In this document: positions 9,178-58,984 of the stretch, piece by piece
Layout: every line of letters starts with the position of its first letter
Numbering within the stretch: position 1 is the stretch's first letter
Assembly (NCBI GenBank): GCA_018663505.1
Contig: JABJQG010000046.1
Location: forward strand, 614-64,613
Origin: Pseudobdellovibrionaceae bacterium
GTDB taxonomy: Bacteria; Bdellovibrionota; Bdellovibrionia; Bdellovibrionales; UBA1609
Direction: 5' to 3'
Length of the DNA: 64,000 bases
Translations under genes and position numbers: made by a program
Notes under the pieces: model-generated
What the model was told of the DNA's origin: nothing
The model's database searches: none
Seen by the model: only the letters and a program-made list of their open reading frames with translations

Positions 9178-9377
9178 TTTATACATAGAGGTTCTTAATC
9201 ATAGAGACAAAGGGTGCTATTTTAAATTACATCTAACGGTTCATACTTGATCTTATCAGCAGCTCTTAATTTTAAATATAGAGCACAGGTCTCATCCTGA
9301 TACAGTTTTACTTAATGATATCATATATTTAAGAAAAATACTTGATATTATTATCTAAAAAGACGATAGTAATACTA

Positions 9378-10148
9378 ATGAAAGATTTAATGGAATTGTT
9401 AGTGACATCAGAAACCCGGAAGCAACTTTTGAGATTGCTCTGGCAAGAGGGCGTTGAGGCTTCAGCGCACCAGTTATCCAATTTGTCAGGTTGTTCCTAT
9501 GCATCTGTTTATGATGAGCTTGAGCAGCTGGTTAATGTTGATTTAGTGTTAAAAACTAAGTCAGGAAAATCCAACCTCTATAGTCGTAATTTACAATCGG
9601 AGTTTGCTGAGTCTCTGTGTAACTTAGTGGGAGAGTTAAGATTTCAGACAAACCTAAAGCAATTAGATGAGCAGGAAGTTGAAGCGCATCTTTTTGCTCT
9701 TGGTGCCCCTTTAGGGGGCGCACGGGTTACTCAAAAGAGCTTATCTTTAGAAGAGGCTTTGGTGGCTGGAGTTATGTTAGCACATAAGAATTCCACAGTA
9801 GCCAGAGTCTTGCCAGTAGTCATGGCAAAAAATGTTAGTCACTTTGATTTTGAAAGATTATTTTTTCTTGCCCGAAAAGAAAAAGTATCTAGAGGATTAG
9901 GCTTTTTACTCGACCTGACTGGGACTCTTAGCTCCTCGAGGAAACTAAAGAAATTAGCGCTTAAGCTTATGGATAAGCGGGTTAAGACAAGAAAACCTTT
10001 TTTTGTTTTAACCTCTAAAAAAGGAAAGTATGCACTTCTACTAGAGGAGCAAAATACTCCTGAGTTGGCAAAGAAATGGCATTTTTCCATGAATATGGGA
10101 CTTGATAGTTTTTCAAGTCTTTATAAAAAAGTAATTGAAACGGAGTAG
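9378..10148 (+). CDS. winged-helix (ArsR/MarR-like) DNA-binding protein with an uncharacterised C-terminal domain
   Basis: The ORF runs from the TTG at 9342. I prefer the ATG at 9378 (MKDLMELLVTSETRKQLLRLLW...). HTH-like segment SAHQLSNLSGCSYASVYDELEQLVNVDLV. Confidence 0.6.
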   Translation: MKDLMELLVTSETRKQLLRLLWQEGVEASAHQLSNLSGCSYASVYDELEQLVNVDLVLKTKSGKSNLYSRNLQSEFAESLCNLVGELRFQTNLKQLDEQEVEAHLFALGAPLGGARVTQKSLSLEEALVAGVMLAHKNSTVARVLPVVMAKNVSHFDFERLFFLARKEKVSRGLGFLLDLTGTLSSSRKLKKLALKLMDKRVKTRKPFFVLTSKKGKYALLLEEQNTPELAKKWHFSMNMGLDSFSSLYKKVIETE

Positions 10149-10151
10149 TGA

Positions 10152-10664
10152 ATGCAAAAGTATAGTGCCCCAGAGATTAGGTAATTCCTGAAAACAACGG
10201 ATGAGTTTCTATCCAAAGAAGTTGAGCTTATAATTATTGGAGGAACTGCCGCTGCATTAGCCTATAAGGCGAGTCGACGTACAACAGATGTGGATACATA
10301 TAATTCAATTGGCGACCTCAAAGGGGCCCATGCAAAAGCTCAAAAAAAATTGAACGTGGGAATTGCTCTTGAGCAACCTGCTACTACAGATGCACCTTAT
10401 GAGTTTGAAGATAGATTAGAGGAGTTGGATTTACAGCATAAATATTTAAAAGTATGGGTCCCAGAGGTTCATGATCTAATTTTGATGAAGACAATGAGGG
10501 CTTATGATCATGACCTAGAGGTTATTCAACAAATAGTGGAAGAGAAAGAAAATGAGGTAAAATTGGATGTGCTTGTAGATCGTTTAATTAATGAAATGAC
10601 TCATGTCATAGGTGAACCCGAACGAATTAAAGGTAATTTTTTGGCAGTTGTGGAAAGATCATAA
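10152..10664 (+). pseudogene. small nucleotidyltransferase-fold (DUF6036/AbiEii-like) gene interrupted by an in-frame TAA at codon 11
   Basis: ATG at 10152, 4 nt after the upstream stop, gives MQKYSAPEIR, then TAA (10182-10184). The same frame continues FLKTTDEFLSKEVELIIIGGTAAALAYKASRRTTDVD... The only listed restart (GTG 10290) lies inside the TDVD motif. Confidence 0.5.
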
Positions 10665-21633: not shown

Positions 21634-22827
21634 ATGAATCAAAGTTGTGTAAAATCGGAGGATTATGTGAAAATACTGATCAAACTTATTTTGATCATGC
21701 CATTTTTTGCATACGCAAATTCAGAGAATAAAAATAGCTCCCAAAAAAGTACTTTGGCAGTAAAGGACCAGTCTGCACTTTTGAATAATAAATCTAGCAC
21801 TATGTTCTCTTTGGAAAACAGCTTTATTTCCAAAGTGTCCACATTTGATGAAGGTGAAGATTCTGCATACCAGGTGATTTTTGGATACCAACCTAGTTTA
21901 AAATTTAACATCCATTCAAAGTTTAATATTGATACTCAATTCTCCATTAACCTTGGCGCTTCGCGGGTACAATCTCGTTTTCAGAGACACAGCGACAATG
22001 ATACGGTTTTGAATGAATTAAGTATGAATTACCTACCCATAGAAAATTTAAAATTTTCATTAGGTGCAATAAATCAAAAACACCTAGAGTCTCCACATTT
22101 AGTTTCAGGTGTGACGTTCCCAGGTTTTAAATTGGAAGCAAAAACTAAGGGAAAGGGATTTAATATTGGAGCAAAGACACAATATTTAGTTCCCACATCT
22201 TCAAGTTTTGACTCAGACAGAAGCGAATCTGAAGTGCTACCTAACTTTCAAACCCAGGGTATCTTTGCAAGTTATAATGGTTTTAGTAAAGTAGATCTGC
22301 AAGCTCAGTGGAACCTGTATAGTTTTTCTAACTTGCCTTCTGTGGTGGCTTATGAAAGCAAGCGATTAGGGAATTTTTATATTACAGGAACAGATGTTTC
22401 AGAGAGTGCCTTTGCTGTTGATTATGCTGGGCTAAGCCAATCCTATAATGCGAAAATTAACTACACCAAGGGGCTTTCACATAATTTATTTGCCTCAATT
22501 GTTGAGAACCAAAATTTAGAATCCGGTAGTAATCGAGCACAATCAGTAGGTACAAGTTTAGATGTGAAAATTGCTCAAGTGGTTTTGACTCCTTCCATAA
22601 CCACATTTTTCTCAGAAACAGATGCTTCGCCAGCATTTTATAACTCTAGTGATCTTGGACACAGTAACAGACAAGGGATGAAATACTCTTTGCGTACCTA
22701 TTTTAAGAAATTGAAATTTGCCATTCAAGCGAACCTTATAGATTCCCAGGTGTTAAACATCTCTGCATATCAACAAGATTTAGTTATAGCAGAACTCTTT
22801 GTGGAGATGATCAATGTACGGTTCTAA
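21634..22827 (+). CDS. predicted outer-membrane beta-barrel protein
   Basis: Signal peptide (...IMPFFAYA), alternating beta-strand-like pattern throughout, and a C-terminal aromatic residue (...MINVRF). The GTG at 21667 with GGAGG 5 nt upstream is an alternative start. Confidence 0.6.
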   Translation: MNQSCVKSEDYVKILIKLILIMPFFAYANSENKNSSQKSTLAVKDQSALLNNKSSTMFSLENSFISKVSTFDEGEDSAYQVIFGYQPSLKFNIHSKFNIDTQFSINLGASRVQSRFQRHSDNDTVLNELSMNYLPIENLKFSLGAINQKHLESPHLVSGVTFPGFKLEAKTKGKGFNIGAKTQYLVPTSSSFDSDRSESEVLPNFQTQGIFASYNGFSKVDLQAQWNLYSFSNLPSVVAYESKRLGNFYITGTDVSESAFAVDYAGLSQSYNAKINYTKGLSHNLFASIVENQNLESGSNRAQSVGTSLDVKIAQVVLTPSITTFFSETDASPAFYNSSDLGHSNRQGMKYSLRTYFKKLKFAIQANLIDSQVLNISAYQQDLVIAELFVEMINVRF

Positions 22828-25800
22828 GGTGTTGCAACATTTTATCAAAACCACGTTACTTGTTGGCTTAGTATCTACAACGTTTCTTTCCTCAGGTTGT
22901 TTACGAAAGGCTGAGAAAGCGAAGCCACAGGTAGAAATGTCGGTGGAAGAAAAAGCTAAAAGTTCAGCTGATTTTAAATTAGTGACGGTAACTGGTGAGT
23001 CTTTTGCCAGCTCCGCATCTAAACTTTGGGGGATCCCCACCCACAAAACCTATGATTTCAGAGCATGTTTAATATCTAAAGCCACTAAATCTCCCTTGTC
23101 ATCGGGTCAAAAATTTAATGTTGTAAGGCCTGACAAAGGGGTTTCCTTTGCAGAAACAGATGATCATGGGTGTTTAAATTGGCATGAGAAAATCACATTT
23201 AACTTTGCTGCAGACTCCACATACATTGAATTGCCGAGAACATTATCTGGCCGTGGTATTTACAAAGGGGATCTTCCATTAAGTATTGGTATAAATCCTT
23301 GGTTAGAATATAGAAATGAAAAAGGAACGGAGGTTGTAGACCTTGCTAAAGTTAAGTTACCAGACAGCCATGTGGTAAGAGGGAAAGACAGTAAACTTTC
23401 ACTTTCAGGCCTATATAACAATGGGTCAGGTAGAGATCTGCTTATCGACAATAAAGTACAGTTAGAAATTTCCAAAGTTGAAGACGTTAAGGGAGCAAAA
23501 AGGGTAGAGGTAATTGCTAAAATTAAACCCTATATTGAACCTTTAAACATGTTAGGCAAACAAGTACGATATGACTTCAGAAAGGGAAAATTTCATGTAG
23601 CTCTTCAACTGGTTGCTGACCAGTTAGGTGCAGGAGCCAAACGCAGTATGCTGTTAACACCCACATTGATGCCCAAACCAAATGCAGAAGTTAAGGCTGA
23701 TGGAACAATTATATTCAAACAAGAAGTGTTGTTAAATAGAGAAGTTATGCAGGGTAATATTCATATGGCCTTAAGTGTAAGGACTGTGGACGACCCCTTT
23801 GTCACACCTTTAAAACCATATGAGGGGCTGCATAGAGTTAGTGACCTTAGAAATATTTTTAACAAGGACCATAGTGCCCATCAGATTGCAGGTGTGTTTA
23901 CTGAGGAAGACTTCAGCTATGGTGAGTATATTTCGAAAACAGAAGGTTTTGACATACTTAAAAAAGAAGGCCTAGCACGTGATCTACCACCATTTGTTTA
24001 TGAGCCTATGGCCATTCGTTTTGTGCGCATAAAATCAGGTGAAACGGCAACACGTAGAATTGTCATGTACAGAGTACAAACAAGGGTTGTTGATAGCATA
24101 ACAATGTTACCTGTGAAGTTTGCAAAGTTCTCTATCTATAAAAGTGAAAGTGCAACAAGAGAGTCCTCTGATACTGATGCCTTTGGTATTTTAAAATGGA
24201 CGGATGAAATTTCTCATTTATATTATATCCCCGAACAGTACTTTTTTCCCCAAGCTGTGGCTACCCATGTTTTATCTAAGGATACTCATAAGTTTAAATT
24301 AGTTTTAAACCCATGGACAGCGGGCTGGACTTTTGGAACGGATATGGGTGAACAAGGCGCATATTACGAAGGATTAAATAAAACGGTAAAGCGTAAGTCA
24401 TTATTTATGGTGGATGCTTTCAGATATCAAACCATTCGTTTTCGCTATGTTATAGATAAAAATATGACATTGAATGTAAAAAAAGCTGTGGTTATGGCCA
24501 TGGACCCATTAACCCAACGATACACAATTGATTTTGGTCGAAAGGGTGGAGAACCCCTAAGAGATGGTATTTATCTTGTTAAGGTGGCTTTAGTGAAATT
24601 TTTCGTTGACCCCTTTGGCAATGGAACTCGACTGCAACGGATTAAAGCTACAGGGGAACATAAGGTGGTAAAGGTTTCAGATAACCCTGAATCCAAGAAA
24701 AGAAAATATGTCACTGTAATTAAAAAATTGTTAAGAGTGCAGGGTGGGCGTATAACTACTCCATTAGAATTTTCCATGCGTGACCTTAGAATGATGAGTA
24801 TTCGTACAAACATTATGATTCAAATTGAAACCATTGATGAACAAAAGTTACTTGAAATTAATATTGCTGATAAGAAAATTAGAGACTTAGAGACAGCATG
24901 GAAAGCCTATAATCCTGAACTGATTGATGAAGGCAAGGCTCTTACTGAAGAGCAAAAAGATGAGTTTATGCTTAAACATATGGATTTATATAAAGCTGAA
25001 ACTGAAAAACTTAAAATGAATATGGCCACTGAGATCACTGATTTGCAAAACCACAGAGAAGTGTTGGCCAATAACCAAGCAGCTCGTTATAAAGCCTTAC
25101 AAGCCTTTGAAGATAAGGTTGGTAATGCTGATATAAAAGAGTTGAAAAAAAGATTTGAAGATACCATGAAATTAGATAAGACTGAGTTTGAAGCTTATTC
25201 GGCAAAACTGCGTGGAAAGATGAGTGACATTGAGACAACTTTTTCAGATGAATGGCGGCAGTGGAACCGTGATATGGACGTGCCAAGTAATGAAATTAAA
25301 GACTGGTACACATGGAGTGATGATTTTAAAGAAGATGAGTTTGATGGCGTAGGTGCTTTAAAAATAAAAAAACAATCCATGTCATGGCAAGCTAAAATAA
25401 GTGAGAATGAATACTATAAATCCCTATCTTTTTCCAACGAGAATCCAGATACAAATAGAAATGGACTAGGGGAAGTAAAATCTGTTTACGACTATCTCTC
25501 AAACCTACAGCTTTTTATGGATAATAATGACATGCCAGGTGTTGTAGGGAACGCTGACTTAACAACAATGAAACTGAATAACTACACACAAAACCCAGCA
25601 GCCCCATTTATTGACCTTGACTTGTATCGTGTTAATGAGGGACTGGCTCGTAGAAGTTTTATTGGTCCATGCACCTTAATTGAAAACCAAAATTTATCGG
25701 AAATGCGTCCTACAGATACCATTGATGAAAAATATTGTGAATTCATAGATTGCCAGGAAAATTTAGATACACTTGCCGAAAAAATTGATAACAAAGAATT

Positions 25801-27667
25801 TGAAGACTCAGCATATCACGGTGCTGTAAAGCCATTTGCCCAAATCCAAGTGGATAATATTATCGATCTTTACCAAAGAGAAGAACGCTTTTATTACACA
25901 GAAATGAAAGCCGTATCCCAGGTAGGTAGTTTTCTTGATAAATACAATATGGATTATATTTCTTTGACTGATAACGCATTTGATAGTGAAGATCCCGAAG
26001 CTCATGCTGAAAAACCCAAACGCTTTAATAATGACTGCGTGGTAAAAAAAGATCTGAAGGAATATAATCGTAATACTTTAGATACCTGTTACGTAGATGC
26101 AGACGATAAAATACAACCTATTGCTGATTTTTTAAAAGAGCTTGATGCTGCTGATTCTAAAAGCCTGATTCAAGACTTTTTTCTATATAAATTTTATGGA
26201 GAAGGAGATGAGGTTGATTACCCACAAGTGAATACGCTACCAGGTTTGTTAGGACAAGTTTGGGGTGATTTTCGTGAAATGGTAGAATTTATTGATGACA
26301 AGATGTACGATAATTACATTGAGGATGTAATTAATGTAGCTAGGAATACCACTAAATTGGTGCAAGGAGCAGTCAATTCAACTTTTGATACCGACTATGG
26401 GTTGGATACTAACACTCGTCGCTATATTAATGAATTTGAAGATCAGAAATTAAAAAAGTTTGATACAGAATCATTAACTGATTATTTCAACAATGAGCAT
26501 GCGAAGCTAAGCCTATTACAAGCTACTAAACTATGTGGTTTACTCACGCAAAGGATTGCTGGTCAGCTTGTAGATAAAAATATGATAAGCGATGAGTATG
26601 TAGGTGTGCCTGGAAAACCTAGAAGTGTAGAGGATCTAGTTAATTCAGCGGGATATATGATGGCTGATAATGATCCTGAAAAAAGAAAATTTATGGGATT
26701 GCCCGAAAACCGTCCAAAATTGCTGATACACAAAGCTCTTCGAAAAATTTGTTTACAGTCAATTAAGCTCGATTACAGAACAGGGAAAGTAAATGCGCCT
26801 ATGCTTTCTTTTGATCGACGCCATCGAGTCATTGAGACAGAAGGCTATGAACACAAAATTGGTCAAAATATGAATCTTAACGTTGGCTACGGTTTTGAAA
26901 TGAATTTTGCTGAATTAAATATGAGTAGTACAACCATTGGCCTTAATGGAGCTAGTATTCCTGCAGCCATGATGGTAGCAGCTTCAAAAAAGGGTGCAGA
27001 TTTATTAAAATTAAGAAAAGCTAAGAAAACGGGTACTGACTTAAAAAATATTAAAAGTTCAAGTTTAGGAGTTATGATAGAGGCGGGGCTATTGTCAGGA
27101 CTCATCATTGCTTCTAAAACACTTGATCGTACTGAAGTTAATGAAATAGCTAAAGGATCTTCAGTAAGTGAAGGGGTGTTTCTAGTGGTGCAACAAGCCA
27201 CTATGGAGATTACACTAAAGAAGTATGAGAGATGTTTCACGTCACACCTCTCACCAGCATTGTTTTATGGTAAGTCTCCTGAAGATTTATATTTACGGGA
27301 AGGACTTAATTTTTCTGATAAAAAACTAGCTGAAGTTATTACAAAAGGTATCATGGTCTGTGAAGGTAAAGTGATTGCTGATCAGCCAAAAAAGGTTATT
27401 GAGAATTACTATTATATCACCCAACATTTTACAGCAGGTGATTTATTGGATGACGGTAATTTATTAAATCATGTATGGCTATTACCTATAAGAGGGACTA
27501 AGGATTTTAATAAATTCATGCGAGCCATTAATGCAAAGGAAATCGACCAAGATGGTGAAGTGATTAAGCCAGGTGACGAATTTTCTTACCCATTAAAGAG
27601 CTTAAGAAAAAACTATGATCAAGTAATTCCATCTTTTCCAGGTATGTACACAGAACAAAGCTTATAG
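22814..27667 (+). CDS. giant (1617 aa) hypothetical lipoprotein with a central coiled coil
   Basis: The start overlaps the barrel gene by 14 nt. Lipobox FLSSGC and a long K/E-rich coiled-coil segment near aa 690-830. No family recognised. Confidence 0.8.
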   Translation: MYGSKVLQHFIKTTLLVGLVSTTFLSSGCLRKAEKAKPQVEMSVEEKAKSSADFKLVTVTGESFASSASKLWGIPTHKTYDFRACLISKATKSPLSSGQKFNVVRPDKGVSFAETDDHGCLNWHEKITFNFAADSTYIELPRTLSGRGIYKGDLPLSIGINPWLEYRNEKGTEVVDLAKVKLPDSHVVRGKDSKLSLSGLYNNGSGRDLLIDNKVQLEISKVEDVKGAKRVEVIAKIKPYIEPLNMLGKQVRYDFRKGKFHVALQLVADQLGAGAKRSMLLTPTLMPKPNAEVKADGTIIFKQEVLLNREVMQGNIHMALSVRTVDDPFVTPLKPYEGLHRVSDLRNIFNKDHSAHQIAGVFTEEDFSYGEYISKTEGFDILKKEGLARDLPPFVYEPMAIRFVRIKSGETATRRIVMYRVQTRVVDSITMLPVKFAKFSIYKSESATRESSDTDAFGILKWTDEISHLYYIPEQYFFPQAVATHVLSKDTHKFKLVLNPWTAGWTFGTDMGEQGAYYEGLNKTVKRKSLFMVDAFRYQTIRFRYVIDKNMTLNVKKAVVMAMDPLTQRYTIDFGRKGGEPLRDGIYLVKVALVKFFVDPFGNGTRLQRIKATGEHKVVKVSDNPESKKRKYVTVIKKLLRVQGGRITTPLEFSMRDLRMMSIRTNIMIQIETIDEQKLLEINIADKKIRDLETAWKAYNPELIDEGKALTEEQKDEFMLKHMDLYKAETEKLKMNMATEITDLQNHREVLANNQAARYKALQAFEDKVGNADIKELKKRFEDTMKLDKTEFEAYSAKLRGKMSDIETTFSDEWRQWNRDMDVPSNEIKDWYTWSDDFKEDEFDGVGALKIKKQSMSWQAKISENEYYKSLSFSNENPDTNRNGLGEVKSVYDYLSNLQLFMDNNDMPGVVGNADLTTMKLNNYTQNPAAPFIDLDLYRVNEGLARRSFIGPCTLIENQNLSEMRPTDTIDEKYCEFIDCQENLDTLAEKIDNKEFEDSAYHGAVKPFAQIQVDNIIDLYQREERFYYTEMKAVSQVGSFLDKYNMDYISLTDNAFDSEDPEAHAEKPKRFNNDCVVKKDLKEYNRNTLDTCYVDADDKIQPIADFLKELDAADSKSLIQDFFLYKFYGEGDEVDYPQVNTLPGLLGQVWGDFREMVEFIDDKMYDNYIEDVINVARNTTKLVQGAVNSTFDTDYGLDTNTRRYINEFEDQKLKKFDTESLTDYFNNEHAKLSLLQATKLCGLLTQRIAGQLVDKNMISDEYVGVPGKPRSVEDLVNSAGYMMADNDPEKRKFMGLPENRPKLLIHKALRKICLQSIKLDYRTGKVNAPMLSFDRRHRVIETEGYEHKIGQNMNLNVGYGFEMNFAELNMSSTTIGLNGASIPAAMMVAASKKGADLLKLRKAKKTGTDLKNIKSSSLGVMIEAGLLSGLIIASKTLDRTEVNEIAKGSSVSEGVFLVVQQATMEITLKKYERCFTSHLSPALFYGKSPEDLYLREGLNFSDKKLAEVITKGIMVCEGKVIADQPKKVIENYYYITQHFTAGDLLDDGNLLNHVWLLPIRGTKDFNKFMRAINAKEIDQDGEVIKPGDEFSYPLKSLRKNYDQVIPSFPGMYTEQSL

Positions 27668-29175: not shown

Positions 29176-29318
29176 GTTTTTCATAAGAGGCTTCTGTGGC
29201 AGGCAAAACCTCTACCCCAAAAAGGCTCAGACATGCAGTGCTCGGCCTTCAGCCTCCGCGCTGAACTCGCTTTTTGTGCCAGAGGTTTTGCCTGCCACAG
29301 AAGCCTCTTATGAAAAAC
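29176..29318. repeat. palindromic element copy 1: 38-bp perfect arms around a 67-nt GC-rich core
   Basis: 29176-29213 is the exact reverse complement of 29281-29318. The reverse complement of core 29214-29280 aligns with core 57964-58024. Confidence 0.85.
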
Positions 29319-29343
29319 TATGAGGTATTTGGGAACTTTAAGT

Positions 29344-30042
29344 ATGAATATTTTAGTGGTTAGTCCTTTGAAGAAGGAGCTTAAAATTGTTATGCAGACT
29401 CTTGGTTTGTTTGATGAATTGATATATAGGTGTCTTTCTAATGGTTGCCCTGTGTGGGAACATCCTGGTAAGAAAATTGTTTTTACTTATCTTGGGGTGG
29501 GACAAAGTGAATTTCAGAAAAATTTCAAAAACATGTTAGGTACATTGGAATCTTTGGAGCAAGTTATTTGTGTTGGGAGCTGTGGAGCCTTAAATAATGA
29601 GACTCAGCTGGCTGAGGTTTTTACTTTTGGTCATAAAGCTATCTCTGAAACTAATTATGTAAGTGTTGAAGAACAAAAGGATACCGTCACCTCCGACTCT
29701 TCGCCCACCTCTAAATCTCTTTTTAGTCTTAATTCAAATGAACCTGGGCCTGAAAAATCGGCAGCGGGAAGTGTTAAGCTTGCCAAGAGCTATGTCCGGT
29801 CAGATGTGGGGCCTATAGAAGAGAGTGAAAGGATTGCTCTTTTGGCTGAAGGTTATGTGTGTGTCACTCAAGAGGGATTTCTAGGGGAGGGATACGCAGG
29901 AGGGGTGGCTTTGCTTGAGATTCGTGGTGTAACTGATTACTCTGACTCTGCTTTCCAGGCTGACTTTCATCTTAATTTGGAGCAGGCCTTGATGAGCTGC
30001 GCCAAGGTGCTTGGCCAAATATTAAAAATACATATAGACTAA
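29344..30042 (+). CDS. nucleoside phosphorylase superfamily protein (MTA/SAH nucleosidase or futalosine hydrolase-like) with a low-complexity insertion
   Basis: MNILVVSPLKKELKIV..., VICVGSCGALN and LLEIRGVTDYSD resemble PNP_UDP_1 motifs. There is a Ser/Thr/Pro-rich insert at about aa 110-150. The alternative ATG at 29320 abuts the hairpin arm. Confidence 0.5.
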   Translation: MNILVVSPLKKELKIVMQTLGLFDELIYRCLSNGCPVWEHPGKKIVFTYLGVGQSEFQKNFKNMLGTLESLEQVICVGSCGALNNETQLAEVFTFGHKAISETNYVSVEEQKDTVTSDSSPTSKSLFSLNSNEPGPEKSAAGSVKLAKSYVRSDVGPIEESERIALLAEGYVCVTQEGFLGEGYAGGVALLEIRGVTDYSDSAFQADFHLNLEQALMSCAKVLGQILKIHID

Positions 30043-51459: not shown

Positions 51460-53421
51460 ATGAATCAAATTACTCGTATAATAGTTGTGTTTTTTGTTGG
51501 GGTAATACCCTTAACATATAATGCTTGTTCTTCTTCTCATACAGGTTCCGATTCATTATCAAGCCTAGATGCTTGTCAACAAAAGCAGTCAACAACTTTT
51601 CAAGAAACATATTATCAATTTGCAAAAACCAATTGTATTACTTGTCATGCTCCTGGAGGAGTAGGGAAAGGATATTTTGCAGGCAGTGACATCGAGGTTG
51701 CTTACAAAGCATTTAGCTATTTGGGATATGCAATGTTTGGCGAACGGGCTAAAGATGATGCTCATGCGCCGCCTTTCAGTGGGTCTAAGCATGCGCAATC
51801 TGTTAAAGACATGGAACAAAAATGGGGAGCACAGGCTGAAGAGTTTGAATTTTGTTTGGCTAGTGGGGATGCCTCATTAGCTCCAATATTCCTTCCAGAT
51901 TCTGAACTAGATTTAAGAGTGCAAACAACACAAAAAAATATTTCAGCCAATTTAATTGGTGAAGATAGTGTAGTGGTTAGTTGGGACTTAGCTACAGAGG
52001 TATACACATCCGATGGTTCTTCGTTACAAGGCGTAACAGGAACATTCTCTGTTACAGTAATTCCTTATATTGATTCTGGTGGGGAGTACTACTATCATAT
52101 TTATCGACCAGAGGTTGTTTCCACTTCGGATATTCGTGTAGAAAGCTTAGTGTTTGGATTTAATGGATCTTACCTTAAGACAGAGAGTACATTCACAAAT
52201 ATTATAGCTGATGTTTACGATAGCGATGATAGAAGTAATAATATTGGAGTGGGATCTGAGATTATTTCAGGTGGTACTTTAATTATAAAAACGGTGCCTA
52301 CAGTAAATGATTTTCTGAAAGTGACATTTGGAGTTATAGAGTCCACAACTTTGGTGAAGCCACCCGCAGGGCCAATTATAACTTTTGCTTCTAACACAGG
52401 CTCAGTTCTAGAGGGGTCTCACTTAAGTGCAGATCCTGTAACTCGAAGAAATGATTATATGGGAGCTTTAAGTGAGATTACAAACGTTTATGAATCTGTT
52501 CCAAATAATAGTGCGTGTGTAACCTTGAATGTTCAAACAGGAGGGGAGAATGACTTTATAAGCCCTGATGAGCCTGTGCGAGTTATTATTGGAGTAATAG
52601 GACAAGGTGGAGCAAAACCAGTTGGTGGTGGCCCTGGAATAACCGCTGTAAATGTGGATATAGGTGGCAATCAAACAGATGTAAATCGATATGATTGGGA
52701 TTATATCTTAGGTAGTGAGACAGTCTTAATTTATCCTGGTGAAGCGAGTAAAGAATTTTGTTTAGAGATTTCAAAGGACAATCGTTTTGAAGAAGGTGAG
52801 ACAGTAGAGGTTACTATTAGCGGAATAGTTGGGGGAACAAATGGCCAAGGAAATACTCCTATGGTGATATCAATTATTGATGATGATGTAGACATTGTTA
52901 CTGAAACAACCGTTTTTGGAGAGCCTTACCAATTTGTTAATAAAATTACATATGGTTATTTAATGGATCCTAATTATCCATACGAGCCTCCTTCAGATTA
53001 TATTAATGTGCCAAAGGGTGTTTTATATACAAACTGTTTTCAATGCCATAATTCGGTAAGAAGGTATGGTAACTATGATTTGTCAAACTATGTAGAACTA
53101 CTGGAAAGAGGGGTTGTGCTCCCACCTGAGGTTGATAATACTTATATTTCATCTGTTTGTAATGATGCAAATGTAATAGCGAACAACGATAACGTTAGTA
53201 ATAGTGCCGAATGCATTACAGCACTAAACAGTGACTTTTCTTCTGTGGACACATCATCAGCAGCTTTTGCTGGGCTTATATCAAATAGCTACATGTATAT
53301 TAGGACAGCAGCCAAAGATAGTACTAATTTTGATACAATGCCTATTGAGAATGGCCCAATGAATATTGATAATATTGATGCAGTAAAACAGTGGATTCTT
53401 ACTGGAGCACTAGACGATTAA
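51460..53421 (+). CDS. protein with two planctomycete-cytochrome-c-like (PSCyt) CxxCH modules flanking Calx-beta-like repeats
   Basis: CITCHAPGGVGKGYF near the N-terminus. CFQCHNSVRRYGNYDLSNY ... MPIENGPMNIDNIDAVKQWILTGA at the C-terminus. The middle segments end in ...ISIIDDD. Confidence 0.7.
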   Translation: MNQITRIIVVFFVGVIPLTYNACSSSHTGSDSLSSLDACQQKQSTTFQETYYQFAKTNCITCHAPGGVGKGYFAGSDIEVAYKAFSYLGYAMFGERAKDDAHAPPFSGSKHAQSVKDMEQKWGAQAEEFEFCLASGDASLAPIFLPDSELDLRVQTTQKNISANLIGEDSVVVSWDLATEVYTSDGSSLQGVTGTFSVTVIPYIDSGGEYYYHIYRPEVVSTSDIRVESLVFGFNGSYLKTESTFTNIIADVYDSDDRSNNIGVGSEIISGGTLIIKTVPTVNDFLKVTFGVIESTTLVKPPAGPIITFASNTGSVLEGSHLSADPVTRRNDYMGALSEITNVYESVPNNSACVTLNVQTGGENDFISPDEPVRVIIGVIGQGGAKPVGGGPGITAVNVDIGGNQTDVNRYDWDYILGSETVLIYPGEASKEFCLEISKDNRFEEGETVEVTISGIVGGTNGQGNTPMVISIIDDDVDIVTETTVFGEPYQFVNKITYGYLMDPNYPYEPPSDYINVPKGVLYTNCFQCHNSVRRYGNYDLSNYVELLERGVVLPPEVDNTYISSVCNDANVIANNDNVSNSAECITALNSDFSSVDTSSAAFAGLISNSYMYIRTAAKDSTNFDTMPIENGPMNIDNIDAVKQWILTGALDD

Positions 53422-53499
53422 GAGTCAGAACTTATTTTTGGCATTGTTTTTGTGGGGAGCCTTCACACTAGAAAGGCAGGAGAGAGCCTAATGGCTCGC

Positions 53500-55791
53500 T
53501 CACTGTTGAATTCTTAAATCTGATGAGGAATCACCGGAAACAGATTTAATATTTTGAAAATGTTCGAGTACTCTTTTTTGAGCATCAGAAATATTGCCAA
53601 AAATAATTTCATCTCTGTTGGGGTGTGCTCTGTCAGAAGCTGTAGCAAGAAAATAAAAGTAGTCTTCCGCATTCAAGTTATATTTTTGAATCAGCTGATC
53701 AGCCATATAAACTAAATAGCCGCTGAGGTGTTTATGAATCCCCCCCCTTTTGAGTAGCTGAGTAAATTCCTCCAAAGATTGATCATTTTTAAAAGTCAAA
53801 GGACTGGAATCGTTATTACCTACAGCTTTATTAAACTTCACTTTAGAGAGTACACTAGCGAGCTCATTGATAAATTTTGCTCTAGGGTTTGTTATACTAT
53901 ACTGTTCAGAAACAATATCACTTTCAGAATTAGAAGAAGTATAATTGTACTGATAAATATGGTTCTTATCAAAATAGTCTTGCAGAAGTTGAGAAAGTTC
54001 TTTGGTCGAAAACTGAGACACAGATCTGATGGCTCGTGGAAACAGGTAAAGCCCATATGATAATGAAAAACTACGTTTAGGTTTCAAATTATCTAAATCA
54101 CTCATGTCGGGAAGTTTTTGCATAAGTTTATTGTAAACATCAATAGGCAGCTCTCTTTGTAAATTAAGAACCAACTTCTTTTGTTCTTTCACATCATAAT
54201 CAGTTTCTTTAACTCGTCTGTTTCGACTTGTGTATAATAGAGACTTATCTTCTTTATCCTCTGAGAGTTCAAAAATAGTGTACCTTGTCATTGTGTTCTC
54301 AAAAGAATAGGTATGACCCCACCAAGCCCTACCGTGCCCACCTGACCGGTTAGATAGATAACTGTAGTTACTAGGTATATTGTATTTATCAATTACAGAG
54401 AATCGGCTTTCATCACTGTACTTCTTTGATTTATAATTTAAGAAGATTAAAAAATTTAGTTCAAAATTGCCGGAATAATCGCTGTGGGTTAGGCTTGAGC
54501 CATAAAAATTTCTTTCAATTTTTGGGTCTAAATCCAATCGGGCTAGTCCTCCATTGTTATCAAACTCTGTAGCATAGGAATTGTTAACAGCTTTAGCTAC
54601 ATTTATATTGTCTTGGTAAGCTTTTTCTAAATGGTATACATAAGGTTTAAGATCTTTAGAAAACTTCTCTAATTGTTCGGAATTAGTAGGACGTATTTGC
54701 TTAGTCATATTCACTAAAGAAAGGTACATTAAATCCATTATAGAATCTTGAGATTGCTCCATAAACTTTTTAAATGTGGATCTCATATCCAAGTTTTCTT
54801 CACGCAAATCTAACATATAGTCTGCCAGAAGAAAATCCTGATTTCTTTTATCTAATAAGCTGAATTTTAACAGTTTTAAATAACGTCGAGCACTTTTATT
54901 CAATGCTTTACCAACAAAGGAGCTTCCAAACACAGTGACTTGATGAAGAAAAGAGGAATTGAGGTAAATTTCTTTTTGATTGCCTCTAATTACAATAGCT
55001 TTTAGTCGAATTTTGTGAGGAGCTGCTTTGAATAAATATAAACGTACGGAACCATAGTTTTTATATTGAGTACCAAGGTTAGAGATAAATTCAGTTTCAC
55101 TTCCACTTAAGTGCTCTGAATTATATCTAGCCTTGAGCTCCATTTTTAGATTGATGGCTATAAAATCCCCTACATCAAATTTCTTGAAATCATCAGCAGT
55201 GGTTGGGATTTCATTTGGGCATTTTGTGTATTTTGGTTTTAAAGCCTCTTCCCAGCCACTTAGTGAGATCATTTCAGTGTCAGGATTTGTGACATCACTC
55301 TCATTAGGTTTGTAATAATACTGTACATCTTTAAATTGTTTTTCAAAAACCACTTCAATTTTAGGTACAAAGCTCACTGAAATGTTCTTATTAATATGAA
55401 CAGCTTTGGAAAGTGTATCGTTAAGGTTATAGTCTAGTCCGGAGGACCAAACATCTCGACGTAAAAATTGGTTTTTTATATATGACTTTCTTACCGTCAT
55501 ATCGAAGCTAAAGCCAGAGAAACTAAGGTCACTTGAAATGGTATTCAAGGGAGTATCAAGTACGTTGGATACTCCGTAGCCTAGTTTTGTACGTTCTAGT
55601 TCTTCCCTAAGCCAGGATTTACTTTTTCCAGCATATTTAACATTTTTAGCTTTTTCTGCTGCCAAAGTAAATTTATTGTCTGGTACATTAGGCTTACAGA
55701 TATCAGTAAGTCCCTCAAAAAAGCTTTCCAGGGATAAGGCAGAGGCGCTAGTTGCACTTATTAGAAGTAGTATTATCAAAATATTTTTCAT
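53500..55791 (-). CDS. large hypothetical secreted protein
   Basis: 763-aa ORF with signal peptide MKNILIILLLISATSASA. No family recognised. Confidence 0.7.
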   Translation of the reverse strand: MKNILIILLLISATSASALSLESFFEGLTDICKPNVPDNKFTLAAEKAKNVKYAGKSKSWLREELERTKLGYGVSNVLDTPLNTISSDLSFSGFSFDMTVRKSYIKNQFLRRDVWSSGLDYNLNDTLSKAVHINKNISVSFVPKIEVVFEKQFKDVQYYYKPNESDVTNPDTEMISLSGWEEALKPKYTKCPNEIPTTADDFKKFDVGDFIAINLKMELKARYNSEHLSGSETEFISNLGTQYKNYGSVRLYLFKAAPHKIRLKAIVIRGNQKEIYLNSSFLHQVTVFGSSFVGKALNKSARRYLKLLKFSLLDKRNQDFLLADYMLDLREENLDMRSTFKKFMEQSQDSIMDLMYLSLVNMTKQIRPTNSEQLEKFSKDLKPYVYHLEKAYQDNINVAKAVNNSYATEFDNNGGLARLDLDPKIERNFYGSSLTHSDYSGNFELNFLIFLNYKSKKYSDESRFSVIDKYNIPSNYSYLSNRSGGHGRAWWGHTYSFENTMTRYTIFELSEDKEDKSLLYTSRNRRVKETDYDVKEQKKLVLNLQRELPIDVYNKLMQKLPDMSDLDNLKPKRSFSLSYGLYLFPRAIRSVSQFSTKELSQLLQDYFDKNHIYQYNYTSSNSESDIVSEQYSITNPRAKFINELASVLSKVKFNKAVGNNDSSPLTFKNDQSLEEFTQLLKRGGIHKHLSGYLVYMADQLIQKYNLNAEDYFYFLATASDRAHPNRDEIIFGNISDAQKRVLEHFQNIKSVSGDSSSDLRIQQ

Positions 55792-55940
55792 TGGATGATA
55801 GTACCATGAAAGGGGTCATTCTTGTGTTATTACAGGATAATTGTAAATTGTACAGTGAGCGTAAAGAATTTTTTCAGAGTTAAATATGAGGATTAACTAG
55901 AGGAGAAGATCCATAAGTTTTGAGAATTAAAACTGGGGTA

Positions 55941-56198
55941 TTAGGATTCGCCGCCATCATCGCCAATGGCCTCCACAGGACAACCATCTAGCGCTTCTTT
56001 GCATTGTTCGATTTCATCCTCGGTGAGGGGTTGCTTGCTCACGTAAGCATGACCATCATCTTCGTCCATCATAAAGTTATCTGGAGCACTCATGACACAG
56101 GCGTCGCAGGCAATGCACTCATCATCAACAAAAAACTTTCCTGGTTTATTATCTTCAAATTTTCTATCTTTATCTGCCAAAACAACCTCGTAAATCAA
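55941..56198 (-). CDS. small ferredoxin (single Fe-S cluster type)
   Basis: CIACDACVMSAP ... CPVEAI. Confidence 0.8.
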   Translation of the reverse strand: MIYEVVLADKDRKFEDNKPGKFFVDDECIACDACVMSAPDNFMMDEDDGHAYVSKQPLTEDEIEQCKEALDGCPVEAIGDDGGES

Positions 56199-56342
56199 AA
56201 TAAGTATAATTATATTAAATATTTAAATGTATAATCCTCGGTAAAGCCACAGCTCTTTAAGAAGGAAATTCTTTACATTTTCCCACAGGGCGTGTAATTC
56301 ATCAAGGTATATAACAATCAATTACAATAGGAACTCTCGCTA

Positions 56343-57911
56343 ATGGTTACTGAGGCTGGAAAACGACGAACATTTGCAATTATTTCCCATCCAGATGCGG
56401 GAAAAACAACAATCACCGAGAAGTTACTCTATCATGGTGGTGCTATTCGCGAAACAGGTGAAGTTAAAGGAAAGTCAGGCAAAAAAGCAGCCATGTCTGA
56501 TTGGATGACATTGGAAAAAGAAAGAGGAATCTCCATAACTTCTTCAGTGATGCAGTTTATGTACGGTGAGTTAAAAATCAACCTTTTGGATACACCAGGC
56601 CATAAGGATTTTGGTGAGGATACTTATAGGACCCTTATCGCCGCAGATTCTGCAGCAATGCTTATTGACGCAGCCAAAGGTGTAGAAAAACAAACACGTC
56701 AGCTTTTTGATGTGTGTCGTATGCGTAAAATACCAATTTTTACCTTTGCTAACAAAATGGATAGAGAGGGGATCGACTCCCTAGAGTTAATTGATGATGT
56801 GGAAAGCACTTTAGGCATTAAGTGCATACCAATGACATGGCCAATAGGAATGGGCGACCGATTTCGTGGTTTGTTTCATAGAATGCATAACAAATTATAC
56901 CTTTATGAAAAAGGCAAAGTAGAGCCAGAAGTAATAGCTGTGAGCTCCTGGGAGGACCCCATAATTAAAGAGTATGTCTCAGAAGAGCTTTACGAAAAGT
57001 TTTTAGAAGATATGGAACTGTTAGAAATAGCCTTGGGTCCCTTTGAAGTAGATGATTTTTTACGAGGTGATGTTTCTCCCATGTCTTTTGGATCAGCAAA
57101 AAATAATTGGGGTGTGGATTTGTTTTTAGAAATATTTGCTAAATATGCCCCAGCACCTCAACCCAGAGAATTTGATACGGGCTCTATCAGCCCAGATGAT
57201 AAAGAATTCTCTGGATTTATTTTTAAAATTCAGGCGAACATGGACAAGAAACATCGAGATCGCATTGCTTTTTTAAGAGTTTGTTCTGGTGAATTTGAAC
57301 GGGGCATGAAGGTAAAACATATGCGTTTAAACCGTGAGCTCAGGTTAGCCTATGCCAGTGAATTTATGGCCAAAGACCGTGGTACGGTGGATAATGCTTT
57401 TGCTGGAGATATTGTGGGCATTGTTGATACCGGTAATTTTCAAATTGGAGATAGTATTTCCAGTGGGAAAAAAATAAATTTCCCACCCTTTCCTAAGTTC
57501 TCTCCTGAAATGTTTGCGTCCCTATATATTAAGGACCCTTTAAAGAAAAAACGGTTACAAAAAGGGGTGAATCAGCTGGCCGAAGAAGGAGCAATTCAGG
57601 TATTTATTGATCCACTTATAGGAGAACAGGAGCCTCTAATAGGTGTTGTTGGGGAACTTCAGTTTGAAGTTTTACTTTATAGATTAAATGATGAGTATAA
57701 CTTAGATGTACGTTTGGACCGCCTACCATATAGTGTAGCTCGGTGGCCAAAAAACAAGCATGGAGAAGACGTTTCTGATGTTAAAGGAGCTGAACGTATG
57801 TTTCAGGACTCTGATGGAAACCCGGTAGTATTATTAGCCCAAGCCTGGGATATAGGTTGGTTAGAAAAAGAAAATCCTGATGTTGAGTTTATGGCTTCAC
57901 GCTGGAGGTAG
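56343..57911 (+). CDS. prfC: peptide chain release factor 3
   Basis: RRTFAIISHPDAGKTTITEKLL, DTPGHKDF and NKMDR GTPase motifs, with RF3-like length and C-terminus. Confidence 0.95.
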   Translation: MVTEAGKRRTFAIISHPDAGKTTITEKLLYHGGAIRETGEVKGKSGKKAAMSDWMTLEKERGISITSSVMQFMYGELKINLLDTPGHKDFGEDTYRTLIAADSAAMLIDAAKGVEKQTRQLFDVCRMRKIPIFTFANKMDREGIDSLELIDDVESTLGIKCIPMTWPIGMGDRFRGLFHRMHNKLYLYEKGKVEPEVIAVSSWEDPIIKEYVSEELYEKFLEDMELLEIALGPFEVDDFLRGDVSPMSFGSAKNNWGVDLFLEIFAKYAPAPQPREFDTGSISPDDKEFSGFIFKIQANMDKKHRDRIAFLRVCSGEFERGMKVKHMRLNRELRLAYASEFMAKDRGTVDNAFAGDIVGIVDTGNFQIGDSISSGKKINFPPFPKFSPEMFASLYIKDPLKKKRLQKGVNQLAEEGAIQVFIDPLIGEQEPLIGVVGELQFEVLLYRLNDEYNLDVRLDRLPYSVARWPKNKHGEDVSDVKGAERMFQDSDGNPVVLLAQAWDIGWLEKENPDVEFMASRWR

Positions 57912-58077
57912 TCTGAAGTTTATATTTAATCTTTAAGCTCTTTTTTGGCTTTTCTTAAGTATGGGCAAAAAACGAGTTCGGAGCGGAGCCGAAGGCGAGC
58001 ACCGCTTGTTTGAGTATTTTTGTGCATACTTAAGAAAAGCCAAAAAAGAGCTTAAAGATTAAATATAAACTTCAGAC
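57911..58077. repeat. palindromic element copy 2: 53-bp perfect arms around a 61-nt GC-rich core
   Basis: 57911-57963 is the exact reverse complement of 58025-58077. Core 57964-58024 aligns with the reverse complement of 29214-29280. Confidence 0.85.
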
Positions 58078-58156
58078 GGGCATTTGAAGATTAACCAAAT
58101 ACAAAGTATATTTACTGATTTGAATTGATTTTTCAGTGGAAATAGAGAGGCTATTT

Positions 58157-58984
58157 ATGTCAGATTTGAATAAAGAAATGTTCCCTTACCTGCATGGTTT
58201 TAGCGAAGACGAGCAGCTGCGATTAAGACGACAGGCTCGGTTTATGGAGCATATTATATATAAAGATATTGATTTTTCTCGATGTAAAAACGTCATAGAG
58301 GTAGGGTCCGGAGTTGGGGCCCAAACAGATATACTTTTAAGGCGATTTCCTGATTTAAAAGTTATTGGTATTGACCTTAATGATAAACAATTGGCTTCTG
58401 CTAGGAAATACTTTTCTACAAAAGAGGAACTTAGTTCTCGGTGTGAGTTTTTAGAAATGAACGCGGAATCTTTAAGCTTTGAGTCCAATAGCTTTGATGG
58501 AGGTTTTCTTTGTTGGGTGTTAGAGCATGTACCAAACCCCTCACATGTATTAAATGAAGTTCGCCGAGTGTTAAAACCTGGAGCTTCAGTTTATGTGAAT
58601 GAGGTGATGAATGCTACTTGGTTTTTAGACCCATATTCGCCAAACTTGTGGAAATACTGGATGGCTTTTAATGACTTCCAGTACGATCAGGCTGGTGACC
58701 CATTTGTAGGTGCAAAGCTGGGAAATTTACTATCTTCTTTAGGCTATAAGAATGTGCAGACCACACCAAAAACTTTGTTTTATGATAATCGTTCTACTGA
58801 GCAAAGAAAAGAAACTATCGACTATTGGATGGACTTGCTTTTAAGTGCCTCAGAGCAACTTGTGAAATCGAAATATGTAGATCAACAAACTGTGGATGAA
58901 GCTGTGAAAGAAGTAAATCGTGTGCAGAAGGACCCGAATGCTGTTTTTTATTATACATTTATGCAAGCCACAGCTATAAAATAG
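58157..58984 (+). CDS. class I SAM-dependent methyltransferase
   Basis: Motif I VIEVGSGVGAQTDIL, and post-I/II regions IGIDLN and FDGGFLCWVLEHV. ATG 58157 is preceded by AGAGAGG (the ORF is open from GTG 58136). Confidence 0.8.
   Translation: MSDLNKEMFPYLHGFSEDEQLRLRRQARFMEHIIYKDIDFSRCKNVIEVGSGVGAQTDILLRRFPDLKVIGIDLNDKQLASARKYFSTKEELSSRCEFLEMNAESLSFESNSFDGGFLCWVLEHVPNPSHVLNEVRRVLKPGASVYVNEVMNATWFLDPYSPNLWKYWMAFNDFQYDQAGDPFVGAKLGNLLSSLGYKNVQTTPKTLFYDNRSTEQRKETIDYWMDLLLSASEQLVKSKYVDQQTVDEAVKEVNRVQKDPNAVFYYTFMQATAIK

Follow-up and report, generated by a model that had tools for sequence, protein, structure and literature searches.

Downstream of prfC, in the 64,000-nucleotide stretch of Pseudobdellovibrionaceae contig JABJQG010000046.1 that was analysed here (the window, to which all coordinates refer unless a locus is named), lies a real and unusual element, in which a short GC-rich core is enclosed by two long arms that are flawless reverse complements of one another. 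The same core, in one of two subtypes, occupies the centre of similarly long arms of unrelated sequence at five further sequenced loci, and covariance modelling places it at the conserved apex of a structured hairpin family that is shared with plasmids. We give about an even chance to the reading that the element is a hairpin repeat whose flanking DNA was copied in inverted orientation across the core, by fold-back or template switching at or soon after insertion, and that the arms are flawless because they are young.

The copy downstream of prfC (copy 2) is composed of a left arm of 53 nt at 57911-57963, a core of 61 nt on the plus strand at 57964-58024 and a right arm, also of 53 nt, at 58025-58077. 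A first-pass annotation of this DNA had described the arms as exact over 53 bp and the left arm as beginning with the last base of the prfC TAG, and both observations held on recomputation: the right arm is the exact reverse complement of the left at 53 of 53 positions, and base 57911 is the G of that stop codon (open reading frame (ORF) 56343-57911; junction ...GGAGGTA/G). When the imperfect ends of the core are counted in, the repeat extends to 61 nt at 97%. The left arm is locus-specific and is found unchanged in the assemblies L001-L003, while 6 nt separate the end of the right arm from a weak -35-like hexamer at 58084. Perfect inverted repeats of at least 14 nt with a spacer of 3-100 nt occur in the window only at copy 2 and at a second copy of the element (copy 1), and the longest perfect inverted repeats in five shuffled control sequences measured 10-12 nt. 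As single-stranded DNA (ssDNA), copy 2 has a computed folding energy of -70.5 kcal/mol, compared with -17.4 +/- 2.8 kcal/mol for shuffles (z = -18.8). Copy 2 recurs in three further metagenome assemblies (L001, L002 and L003, the last with a single-nucleotide difference in the core) and copy 1 recurs in L082; since independent assemblies reproduce the element, an assembly artefact is ruled out. Shorter contigs end at the arm/core edge of copy 2, as is expected of assemblers, which stop at inverted repeats.

Copy 1 repeats this architecture at a distance, with a left arm at 29176-29213 that is identical in L082, a core of 67 nt on the minus strand at 29214-29280, and a right arm at 29281-29318 that ends 1 nt before an ATG at 29320 and 25 nt before an alternative start at 29344. 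Its arms pair perfectly over 38 nt, or over 49 nt at 94% if the core ends are included. Comparison of the two cores upheld the earlier statement that they lie in opposite orientations and showed them to be ~20% diverged, and the earlier tally of 91 strict Watson-Crick pairs over the two copies is likewise correct (53 + 38). The sequenced loci of the family number six, the others being L072, L073 and L075, which are three true copies from a metagenome pattern scan, and L087, which was retrieved via look-up of a spurious ORF that translates the core and was the sole yield of that route. A public gene call of 152 aa crosses the element at L087:132-590, and the locus is reported not to translate to that protein; spurious ORFs of this sort over the element are probably present in protein databases.

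Arm length is 53 bp in copy 2, 38 bp in copy 1, 54 bp in L072, 63 bp in L075 and 41 bp in L087, and L073 has 37 bp and 14 bp separated by one A.C mismatch. Between all six loci the arms are unrelated in sequence, and they share a length of 38-63 bp with 0-1 mismatch. About four additional loci came from Logan contigs; their inverted flanks measure at least 22-31 nt, with a single mismatch in one case. No short-armed copy of the host genome was seen among the six sequenced loci and the Logan contigs. The cores fall into subtype A (copy 2, L072, L073 and L075) and subtype B (copy 1 and L087). The k-mer depth of the core exceeds that of the flanks by ~6-8x for subtype A and by 20-40x for subtype B, unitigs of 40-57 nt that are identical across copies reach 28-57x depth, and individual core-bearing contigs have a depth like the genome's own. 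A copy number of roughly 30-50 in one genome is suggested, if all core-bearing contigs are assumed to belong there; every locus of the family seems to derive from a single uncultured marine Bdellovibrionota-like genome. The census, which had been proposed at the outset, is incomplete in that the patterns used for genome and metagenome scans needed GAAGG, which is absent from the commoner subtype B. With such a pattern, GTDB representative genomes gave chance matches only, and two pattern scans of viral contigs likewise returned only chance matches, in high-GC coding DNA.

The core is GC-rich (~60%) within an AT-rich genome, and cores within one subtype differ by only a few bases. From end to end, the core of copy 2 comprises GGC, an A-run, a structured GC-rich centre, a T-run and GTG; the mismatched boxes of 3-4 nt at its ends (GGC versus GTG), which lead from the arm to the A/T clamp, are kept in every copy. 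In the centre, an inner helix CGGAGC/GCACCG (57979-58004, plus strand) is formed by pairing of 57979-57984 with 57999-58004 and encloses the apical hairpin GCC-GAA-GGC at 57988-57996. Two sites of subtype A, 58009 and 58015, are variable (TGT[T/C]TGAG[T/C]A), and the four copies, L072, L073 and L075 included, show all four combinations, a pattern suggestive of repeated C/T change or of gene conversion among dispersed copies. An Rfam search of the element produced only sub-threshold matches to generic long hairpins (miRNA-like), and no half-sites of the core, as signs of a full-length parent element, were found elsewhere in the window.

The arms are built from the DNA of each locus and reach into or up to its genes. 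In L087 the arm begins at the base directly after the upstream TAA, so that in both this locus and copy 2 an arm ends 0-1 nt from a stop codon. In L075 one arm takes in the end of a lytic transglycosylase gene (its last four codons and its stop), the other begins 11 nt past a peptidase stop, and the element occupies the entire spacer between these convergent genes; the transglycosylase tails are not conserved among homologues and give no pointer to the ancestral arm. The core sits precisely on the symmetry axis in every copy. Screens for perfect inverted repeats of at least 14 nt in the 64-kb window and of at least 26 nt in ~55 kb of other loci, including relatives with a 73% identical prfC, found no palindrome that lacked a core. 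Thus, as every palindrome is centred on a core and none is coreless, we conclude that the palindromes depend on the core. The first-pass annotation had attributed the perfection of the arms to a DNA-level process or to young age, and this attribution is borne out by six loci with different local arms and 0-1 mismatch, by near-identical cores and by the lack of a coreless palindrome in ~110 kb; relatives carrying the palindrome without the core, which it had named as a possible counterexample, were not encountered, the loci with the 73% identical prfC among them. No direct target-site duplication was seen at the outer boundaries of the arms at the sequenced loci. A search for an empty site via prfC homologues found none, the homologues being too distant or their contigs too short; exact-protein look-ups of the neighbours of copy 1 returned the same strain only, and eight metagenome runs held no joints or reads that skip the element.

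The core is not private to the host genome. Its 31-mers are present in freshwater, groundwater, wastewater, sludge and aquaculture metagenomes, and a stretch of 47 nt (57968-58014, plus strand) recurs without a single change in metagenome contigs from freshwater, groundwater, wastewater/sludge and other sources, where the flanks differ from contig to contig. In these other-habitat relatives the stem runs on through GCTTCG...GCTTTRCGGAG into inverted arms that are short or imperfect (one pair of 18 bp with a single mismatch, another of 21 bp that includes a G.T pair and an A.C mismatch, and a third of only ~7 bp), and in the X19 and X25 contigs 42-57 nt stand in place of the apical GAA loop. 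Neither the wide occurrence of the core nor the replacement of its apical loop in some relatives had been part of the first-pass annotation. Ordinary decay of arm complementarity, which that annotation had expected to weaken a DNA-level mechanism, does occur, outside the host genome, as mismatches and G.T pairs in the relatives from other habitats.

A BLAST search of PLSDB located 25 of 26 nt of the core centre, CGGAGCG(C)AGCCGAAGGCGAGCACCG (segment 57979-58004), in plasmids, where the matching segment is part of a conserved hairpin element of ~100-140 nt that is widespread on proteobacterial plasmids and present in 319 PLSDB records at 1-6 copies each. Its hosts and plasmid types comprise Burkholderia, Xanthomonas, Pseudomonas, IncW R7K, IncN, PromA-like plasmids and MobV plasmids of 2.5-3 kb; L088:79-176, L089:2470-2566, and L090:4007-4108 and 228-323 are examples among the loci L088-L100. 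All copies inspected lack an annotation, and the plasmid hairpin has no Rfam match at all. One of its contexts, and a frequent one, is a set of leading-region-type genes, such as ardC/kfrA/ssb, ParB-like, DNA methyltransferase and DndB genes and strings of small ORFs, and the other is the vicinity of rep or mob genes in the 2.5-3 kb plasmids; its orientation is not uniform between plasmids. Thirteen plasmid copies share a multi-helix hairpin fold with compensatory changes in 8 of 23 pairs, the apical hairpin varies and covaries across the copies, and conservation extends to the outer stem (GGTCAAGGG/CCCTTGACC), which is imperfect.

The relation between the marine core and the plasmid hairpin was evaluated with a covariance model (R1) built from plasmid copies only (alignment A6), with the marine copies left out. 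Scores of 28-35 bits (E 7e-6 to 3e-4) were obtained with this model for all four subtype A loci, which match it in register and in a single orientation; the top score in 248 kb of unrelated control loci was 19 bits, and the subtype B loci received 14 bits (copy 1) and 16 bits (L087). In a joint marine-plasmid alignment, which was fitted to the R1 model and so leans to the model's structure, 93% of cells are paired versus 78% in shuffles, 17 of 23 pairs have changes on both sides, and pairing falls to 21-45% when the partners are slid. This modelling identifies the core with the conserved apex of a family of structured hairpins that plasmids share, and the marine arms stand where the plasmid element has its own conserved outer stem. 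Such a conserved, structured apex lends support to the early idea that a protein recognises the hairpin. The gene contexts suggest the plasmid hairpin as a candidate ssDNA promoter or priming hairpin of the Frpo/ssi type, for which background is available (PMC11541004, PMC7736820). Its stem contains a TTGAC motif, and no convincing -10 box was found by eye.

According to the reading we favour, the heritable and conserved unit would be the GC-rich core of ~61-67 nt, folded as a multi-helix hairpin apex. The long arms would not belong to the mobile unit; they would be local DNA. A single round of fold-back or template-switch DNA synthesis, coinciding with insertion or following shortly after it, would have duplicated this DNA, inverted, on the far side of the core and left the locus with the layout of flank, core and inverted flank. 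The flawlessness of the arms would derive mainly from recent spread of the family, to which arm-to-arm correction may add. The near-identity of cores within a subtype argues for such recent spread. The lack of short arms in the host genome, together with the clustering of arm lengths at 38-63 bp, implies that arm formation is coupled to insertion and is not a slow growth. With RNA-level selection and pre-existing palindromes set aside, as discussed below, DNA-level inverted copying of one flank remains. Template switching at imperfect inverted repeats is an established route by which arms are perfected and extended (PMC13100816, PMC5453318, PMC10710096). The earlier suggestion of an element that copies its flank in inverted orientation is accordingly the best fit to the loci, and with no empty site found it falls short of proof. 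The copying step, its timing and the function are the parts of this reading that we infer; the function is likely to be that of a stable hairpin in ssDNA or of a bidirectional transcription stop between genes.

Several points weigh against this reading. Without an empty site or an outgroup locus, the copying of an arm, the choice of which arm was copied, and whether the copy was added to the flank or overwrote it all rest on inference. A simple fold-back primed from the T-run of the core would erase the mismatched boxes of 3-4 nt, and as these boxes are conserved in every copy, priming cannot simply start at the T-run. Judging from the short and decayed arms in other-habitat relatives, long perfect arms are not intrinsic to the core. 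None of the 20 window ORFs scanned encodes a mobile-element enzyme. The assignment of all core-bearing contigs to one genome in the estimate of copy number, and the lean of the joint alignment towards the R1 structure, count on the same side.

A more specific proposal, which we put forward tentatively and consider somewhat unlikely, is that the insertion chemistry of the mobile core itself makes an inverted target duplication of ~40-60 bp, and that a relative of the plasmid ssDNA hairpin performs it. In one candidate route to such a duplication, synthesis would be primed at the target and the adjacent strand would then be copied by snap-back, with a reverse transcriptase, a primase-polymerase or an HUH-type enzyme as the candidate enzyme.

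The copies might instead be older, with arms that are kept perfect by ongoing homogenisation or by selection for a long stable stem and that grow outward up to a gene or promoter. The means would be conversion between the arms, either intrastrand or within a cruciform, or template switching that happens again and again, and the stem might serve, for example, as an ssDNA priming or promoter hairpin. In support of this explanation, arms end at functional boundaries, namely the stop codons in copy 2 and L087, the -35-like hexamer in copy 2 and the limits of the whole spacer in L075; the related plasmid hairpins have long stems; and the occurrence of the two variable subtype A sites in all four combinations is a hint of conversion between copies. 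Copy 1, with a core ~20% diverged from that of copy 2, still retains 38 perfect pairs. However, this divergence is a subtype difference common to many copies and gives no insertion date, and the absence of short-armed copies and the persistence of single mismatches in L073 and in one Logan copy also speak against continuous correction and outward growth. We regard an origin of this kind as unlikely.

The layout of the core, in which an A-run, GC-rich hairpins and a T-run follow one another, obtains terminator-like scores on both strands, these being pattern matches only. In copy 2 a terminator-like module lies on the minus strand at 57977-57993 (TTCGGCTCCGCTCCGAA then CTCGTTTTTT) and a weaker one on the plus strand at 57993-58011, and copy 1 has an equivalent module on its plus strand. 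Such a layout, the location of the elements just past gene 3' ends and the tolerance of G.T(U) pairs in other-habitat relatives would be in keeping with an element that is primarily an RNA device, either a bidirectional intrinsic terminator or a 3' stabiliser of the prfC mRNA, whose arms are selected as an RNA stem. Nevertheless, the 53-63 flawless Watson-Crick pairs exceed the needs of RNA selection, and the distal arm would go untranscribed if the core terminates transcription. The core is oriented both ways relative to co-directional genes, with copy 2 and L073, both of subtype A, opposed to each other, and this variation argues against a strand-specific RNA role. No transcript was seen, on very thin RNA data: in three metatranscriptome runs of the same study nothing mapped to the locus. 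An RNA device as the source of the arms is, in our judgement, improbable. A terminator role of the core is plausible from its sequence and would be compatible with inverted copying of the flank, as the sole point of dispute is how the arms originated.

Some insertion sequences target REP hairpins and group IIC introns target terminators, and the position of the core, always exactly on the symmetry axis, is what would be seen if the core were a small transposable element that landed in the centre of long palindromes already in place. We consider this very improbable, given that unoccupied palindromes were not found (at least 14 nt in the 64 kb, and none coreless at the other loci), that relatives with a 73% identical prfC are without such palindromes, and that perfect palindromes of 100-126 bp that include gene ends would be an abnormal feature of a genome. 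An invertible DNA switch, in which the arms act as recombination substrates that flip the core and are kept identical by recombination, is barely credible, since the opposite core orientations of the two window copies and the two Logan contigs that join core to flank in the flipped sense are offset by the graph ambiguity expected with k=31 and 53-nt arms, by the single orientation that four independent assemblies share at prfC and two at copy 1, and by the build of known invertons, in which the repeats are conserved and the interior variable, the reverse of the present case.

The upstream neighbour of copy 2 is prfC itself, which encodes peptide chain release factor 3 (56343-57911, plus strand), and the downstream neighbour is a class I S-adenosylmethionine-dependent methyltransferase gene (58157-58984, plus strand; a gene call of 275 aa with Methyltransf Pfam matches). 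A weak sigma-70-like promoter match at 58084-58112 (TTGAAG, 17 nt, TATATT), with a score no higher than shuffle expectation, lies 6 nt past the right arm. As this putative promoter starts so close to the arm, copy 2 takes up the interval from the prfC stop to the putative methyltransferase promoter. Among named relatives of prfC, the best belong to Bdellovibrionaceae or Pseudobdellovibrionaceae metagenome-assembled genomes and are 66-72% identical; the nearest relative, at 83% identity, is on a contig of 1.7 kb, and the next ones after it have another gene downstream of prfC. The host has a GC content of 32-39%, and the contigs with the element derive from marine metagenomes of the Saanich Inlet type. 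The genes that flank the elements are housekeeping genes, which implies that the element-bearing DNA is chromosomal.

When L003, L005 and L006 were compared with 53400-56300 of the window, the prfC protein and the element were identical, and the genes upstream of a ferredoxin gene differed. Two arrangements exist there, one with cupredoxin, FTR1, cytochrome b and YceI genes and one with a gene for a 763-aa protein, and this difference between strains points to a rearrangement or an island boundary just upstream of the prfC locus. The strain-specific segment upstream of prfC in L003 contains, at 2530-2600, a perfect GC-rich inverted repeat of 23 nt with a spacer of 25 nt and a GTAG start (GTAGGGGCGGGGTCCTCCCGCCC ... 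GGGCGGGAGGACCCCGCCCCTAC), which has a REP-like look and no relation to the core. Elsewhere in the window, two adjoining small ORFs at 9342-10664, the first with a weak HVO_A0114-like match and the second a DUF6036 nucleotidyltransferase, may be a toxin-antitoxin or defence pair. An ORF of 1617 aa at 22814-27667, directly upstream of an alanine:sodium symporter gene, has no Pfam match in the gene table of the contig, and the same applies to several more large ORFs of the window.

If it is true that the arms arise when the core lands, they would constitute a new kind of insertion footprint, and the element would be a naturally occurring system for writing long perfect palindromes into chromosomal DNA. 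Such a system would bear on the origin of hairpins, cruciforms, new terminators and small-RNA precursors, as well as on the tolerance of bacteria for palindromes. The core also connects a chromosomal repeat with a conserved, structured and so far unannotated hairpin of at least 319 plasmids, and this plasmid hairpin is a concrete and directly testable candidate for a new class of ssDNA priming or promoter signal.

An exact-sequence search of the literature returned no paper, and keyword searches returned no description of this architecture. To our knowledge, no described bacterial repeat family wraps a conserved core in a long perfect inverted copy of neighbouring DNA, and we know of no bacterial element for which an inverted target-site duplication has been described as a transposition footprint. 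Integron attC sites, whose consensus R''/R' is RYYYAAC / GTTRRRY, are comparable in that they are imperfect hairpins acting as folded single strands, with a stem whose sequence can vary freely and a central part that differs in length. Nevertheless, they occur in cassette arrays beside an integrase and their apex is the variable part, in contrast to the housekeeping neighbours and conserved apex observed here, and attC boxes were not found by eye at the core ends of the sequenced loci. The sequence hallmarks of an intrinsic bidirectional terminator, a hairpin with a T-run and an A-run for the opposite strand, are present as a pattern match only.

Miniature inverted-repeat transposable elements (MITEs) resemble the family in being small, non-coding, dispersed and intergenic; the core ends form imperfect inverted repeats, and larger relatives hold 42-57 nt between the core halves. 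The family departs from MITEs in that it shows no target-site duplication, its long inverted repeats derive from the target, and no full-length parent was found. The plasmid hairpin described by R1 has the central motif CGGAGCG(G/C)AG, the apical hairpin and CGAGCACCG...TGAG in common with the marine core, along with the same arrangement of helices above a long stem. Its outer stem is conserved and imperfect, whereas the marine copies lie in the chromosome, have AT-rich sequence outside the core and carry unique perfect stems.

A further likeness is to REP/REPIN sequences, which are also short, GC-rich, imperfectly palindromic and intergenic repeats, present in tens to hundreds of copies, hairpin-forming and non-autonomous. 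REP elements often lie within 20 bp of gene 3' ends and are defined by a GTAG/CGTC tag (PMC3733652). At the sequenced loci no GTAG or CGTC tag was found at the core ends and the stems differ at every locus, and no RAYT (TnpA_REP) gene was found among the 20 ORFs scanned in the 64-kb window. Moreover, REP/REPIN sequences, which are mobilised by RAYT (Y1/HUH), have a conserved stem and a variable loop or spacer, whereas in the present family conservation lies in the apex and each locus has its own long stem. The likeness to template-switch (quasi-palindrome) mutation is one of process, in that a single DNA-level event gives a flawless inverted copy of adjacent sequence around a loop; such events can homogenise and expand arms (PMC13100816, PMC5453318, PMC10710096). 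Template-switch mutations are sporadic and strike unrelated sites, whereas ~10 loci here are all centred on the same core with arms of 38-63 bp, and this arrangement implies a core that either drives the event or goes along with it. The closest known kinds are REP/MITE-like hairpin repeats and template-switch palindromes, with their logic inverted, in that conservation lies in the apex while the stem is perfect, unique and taken from the target.

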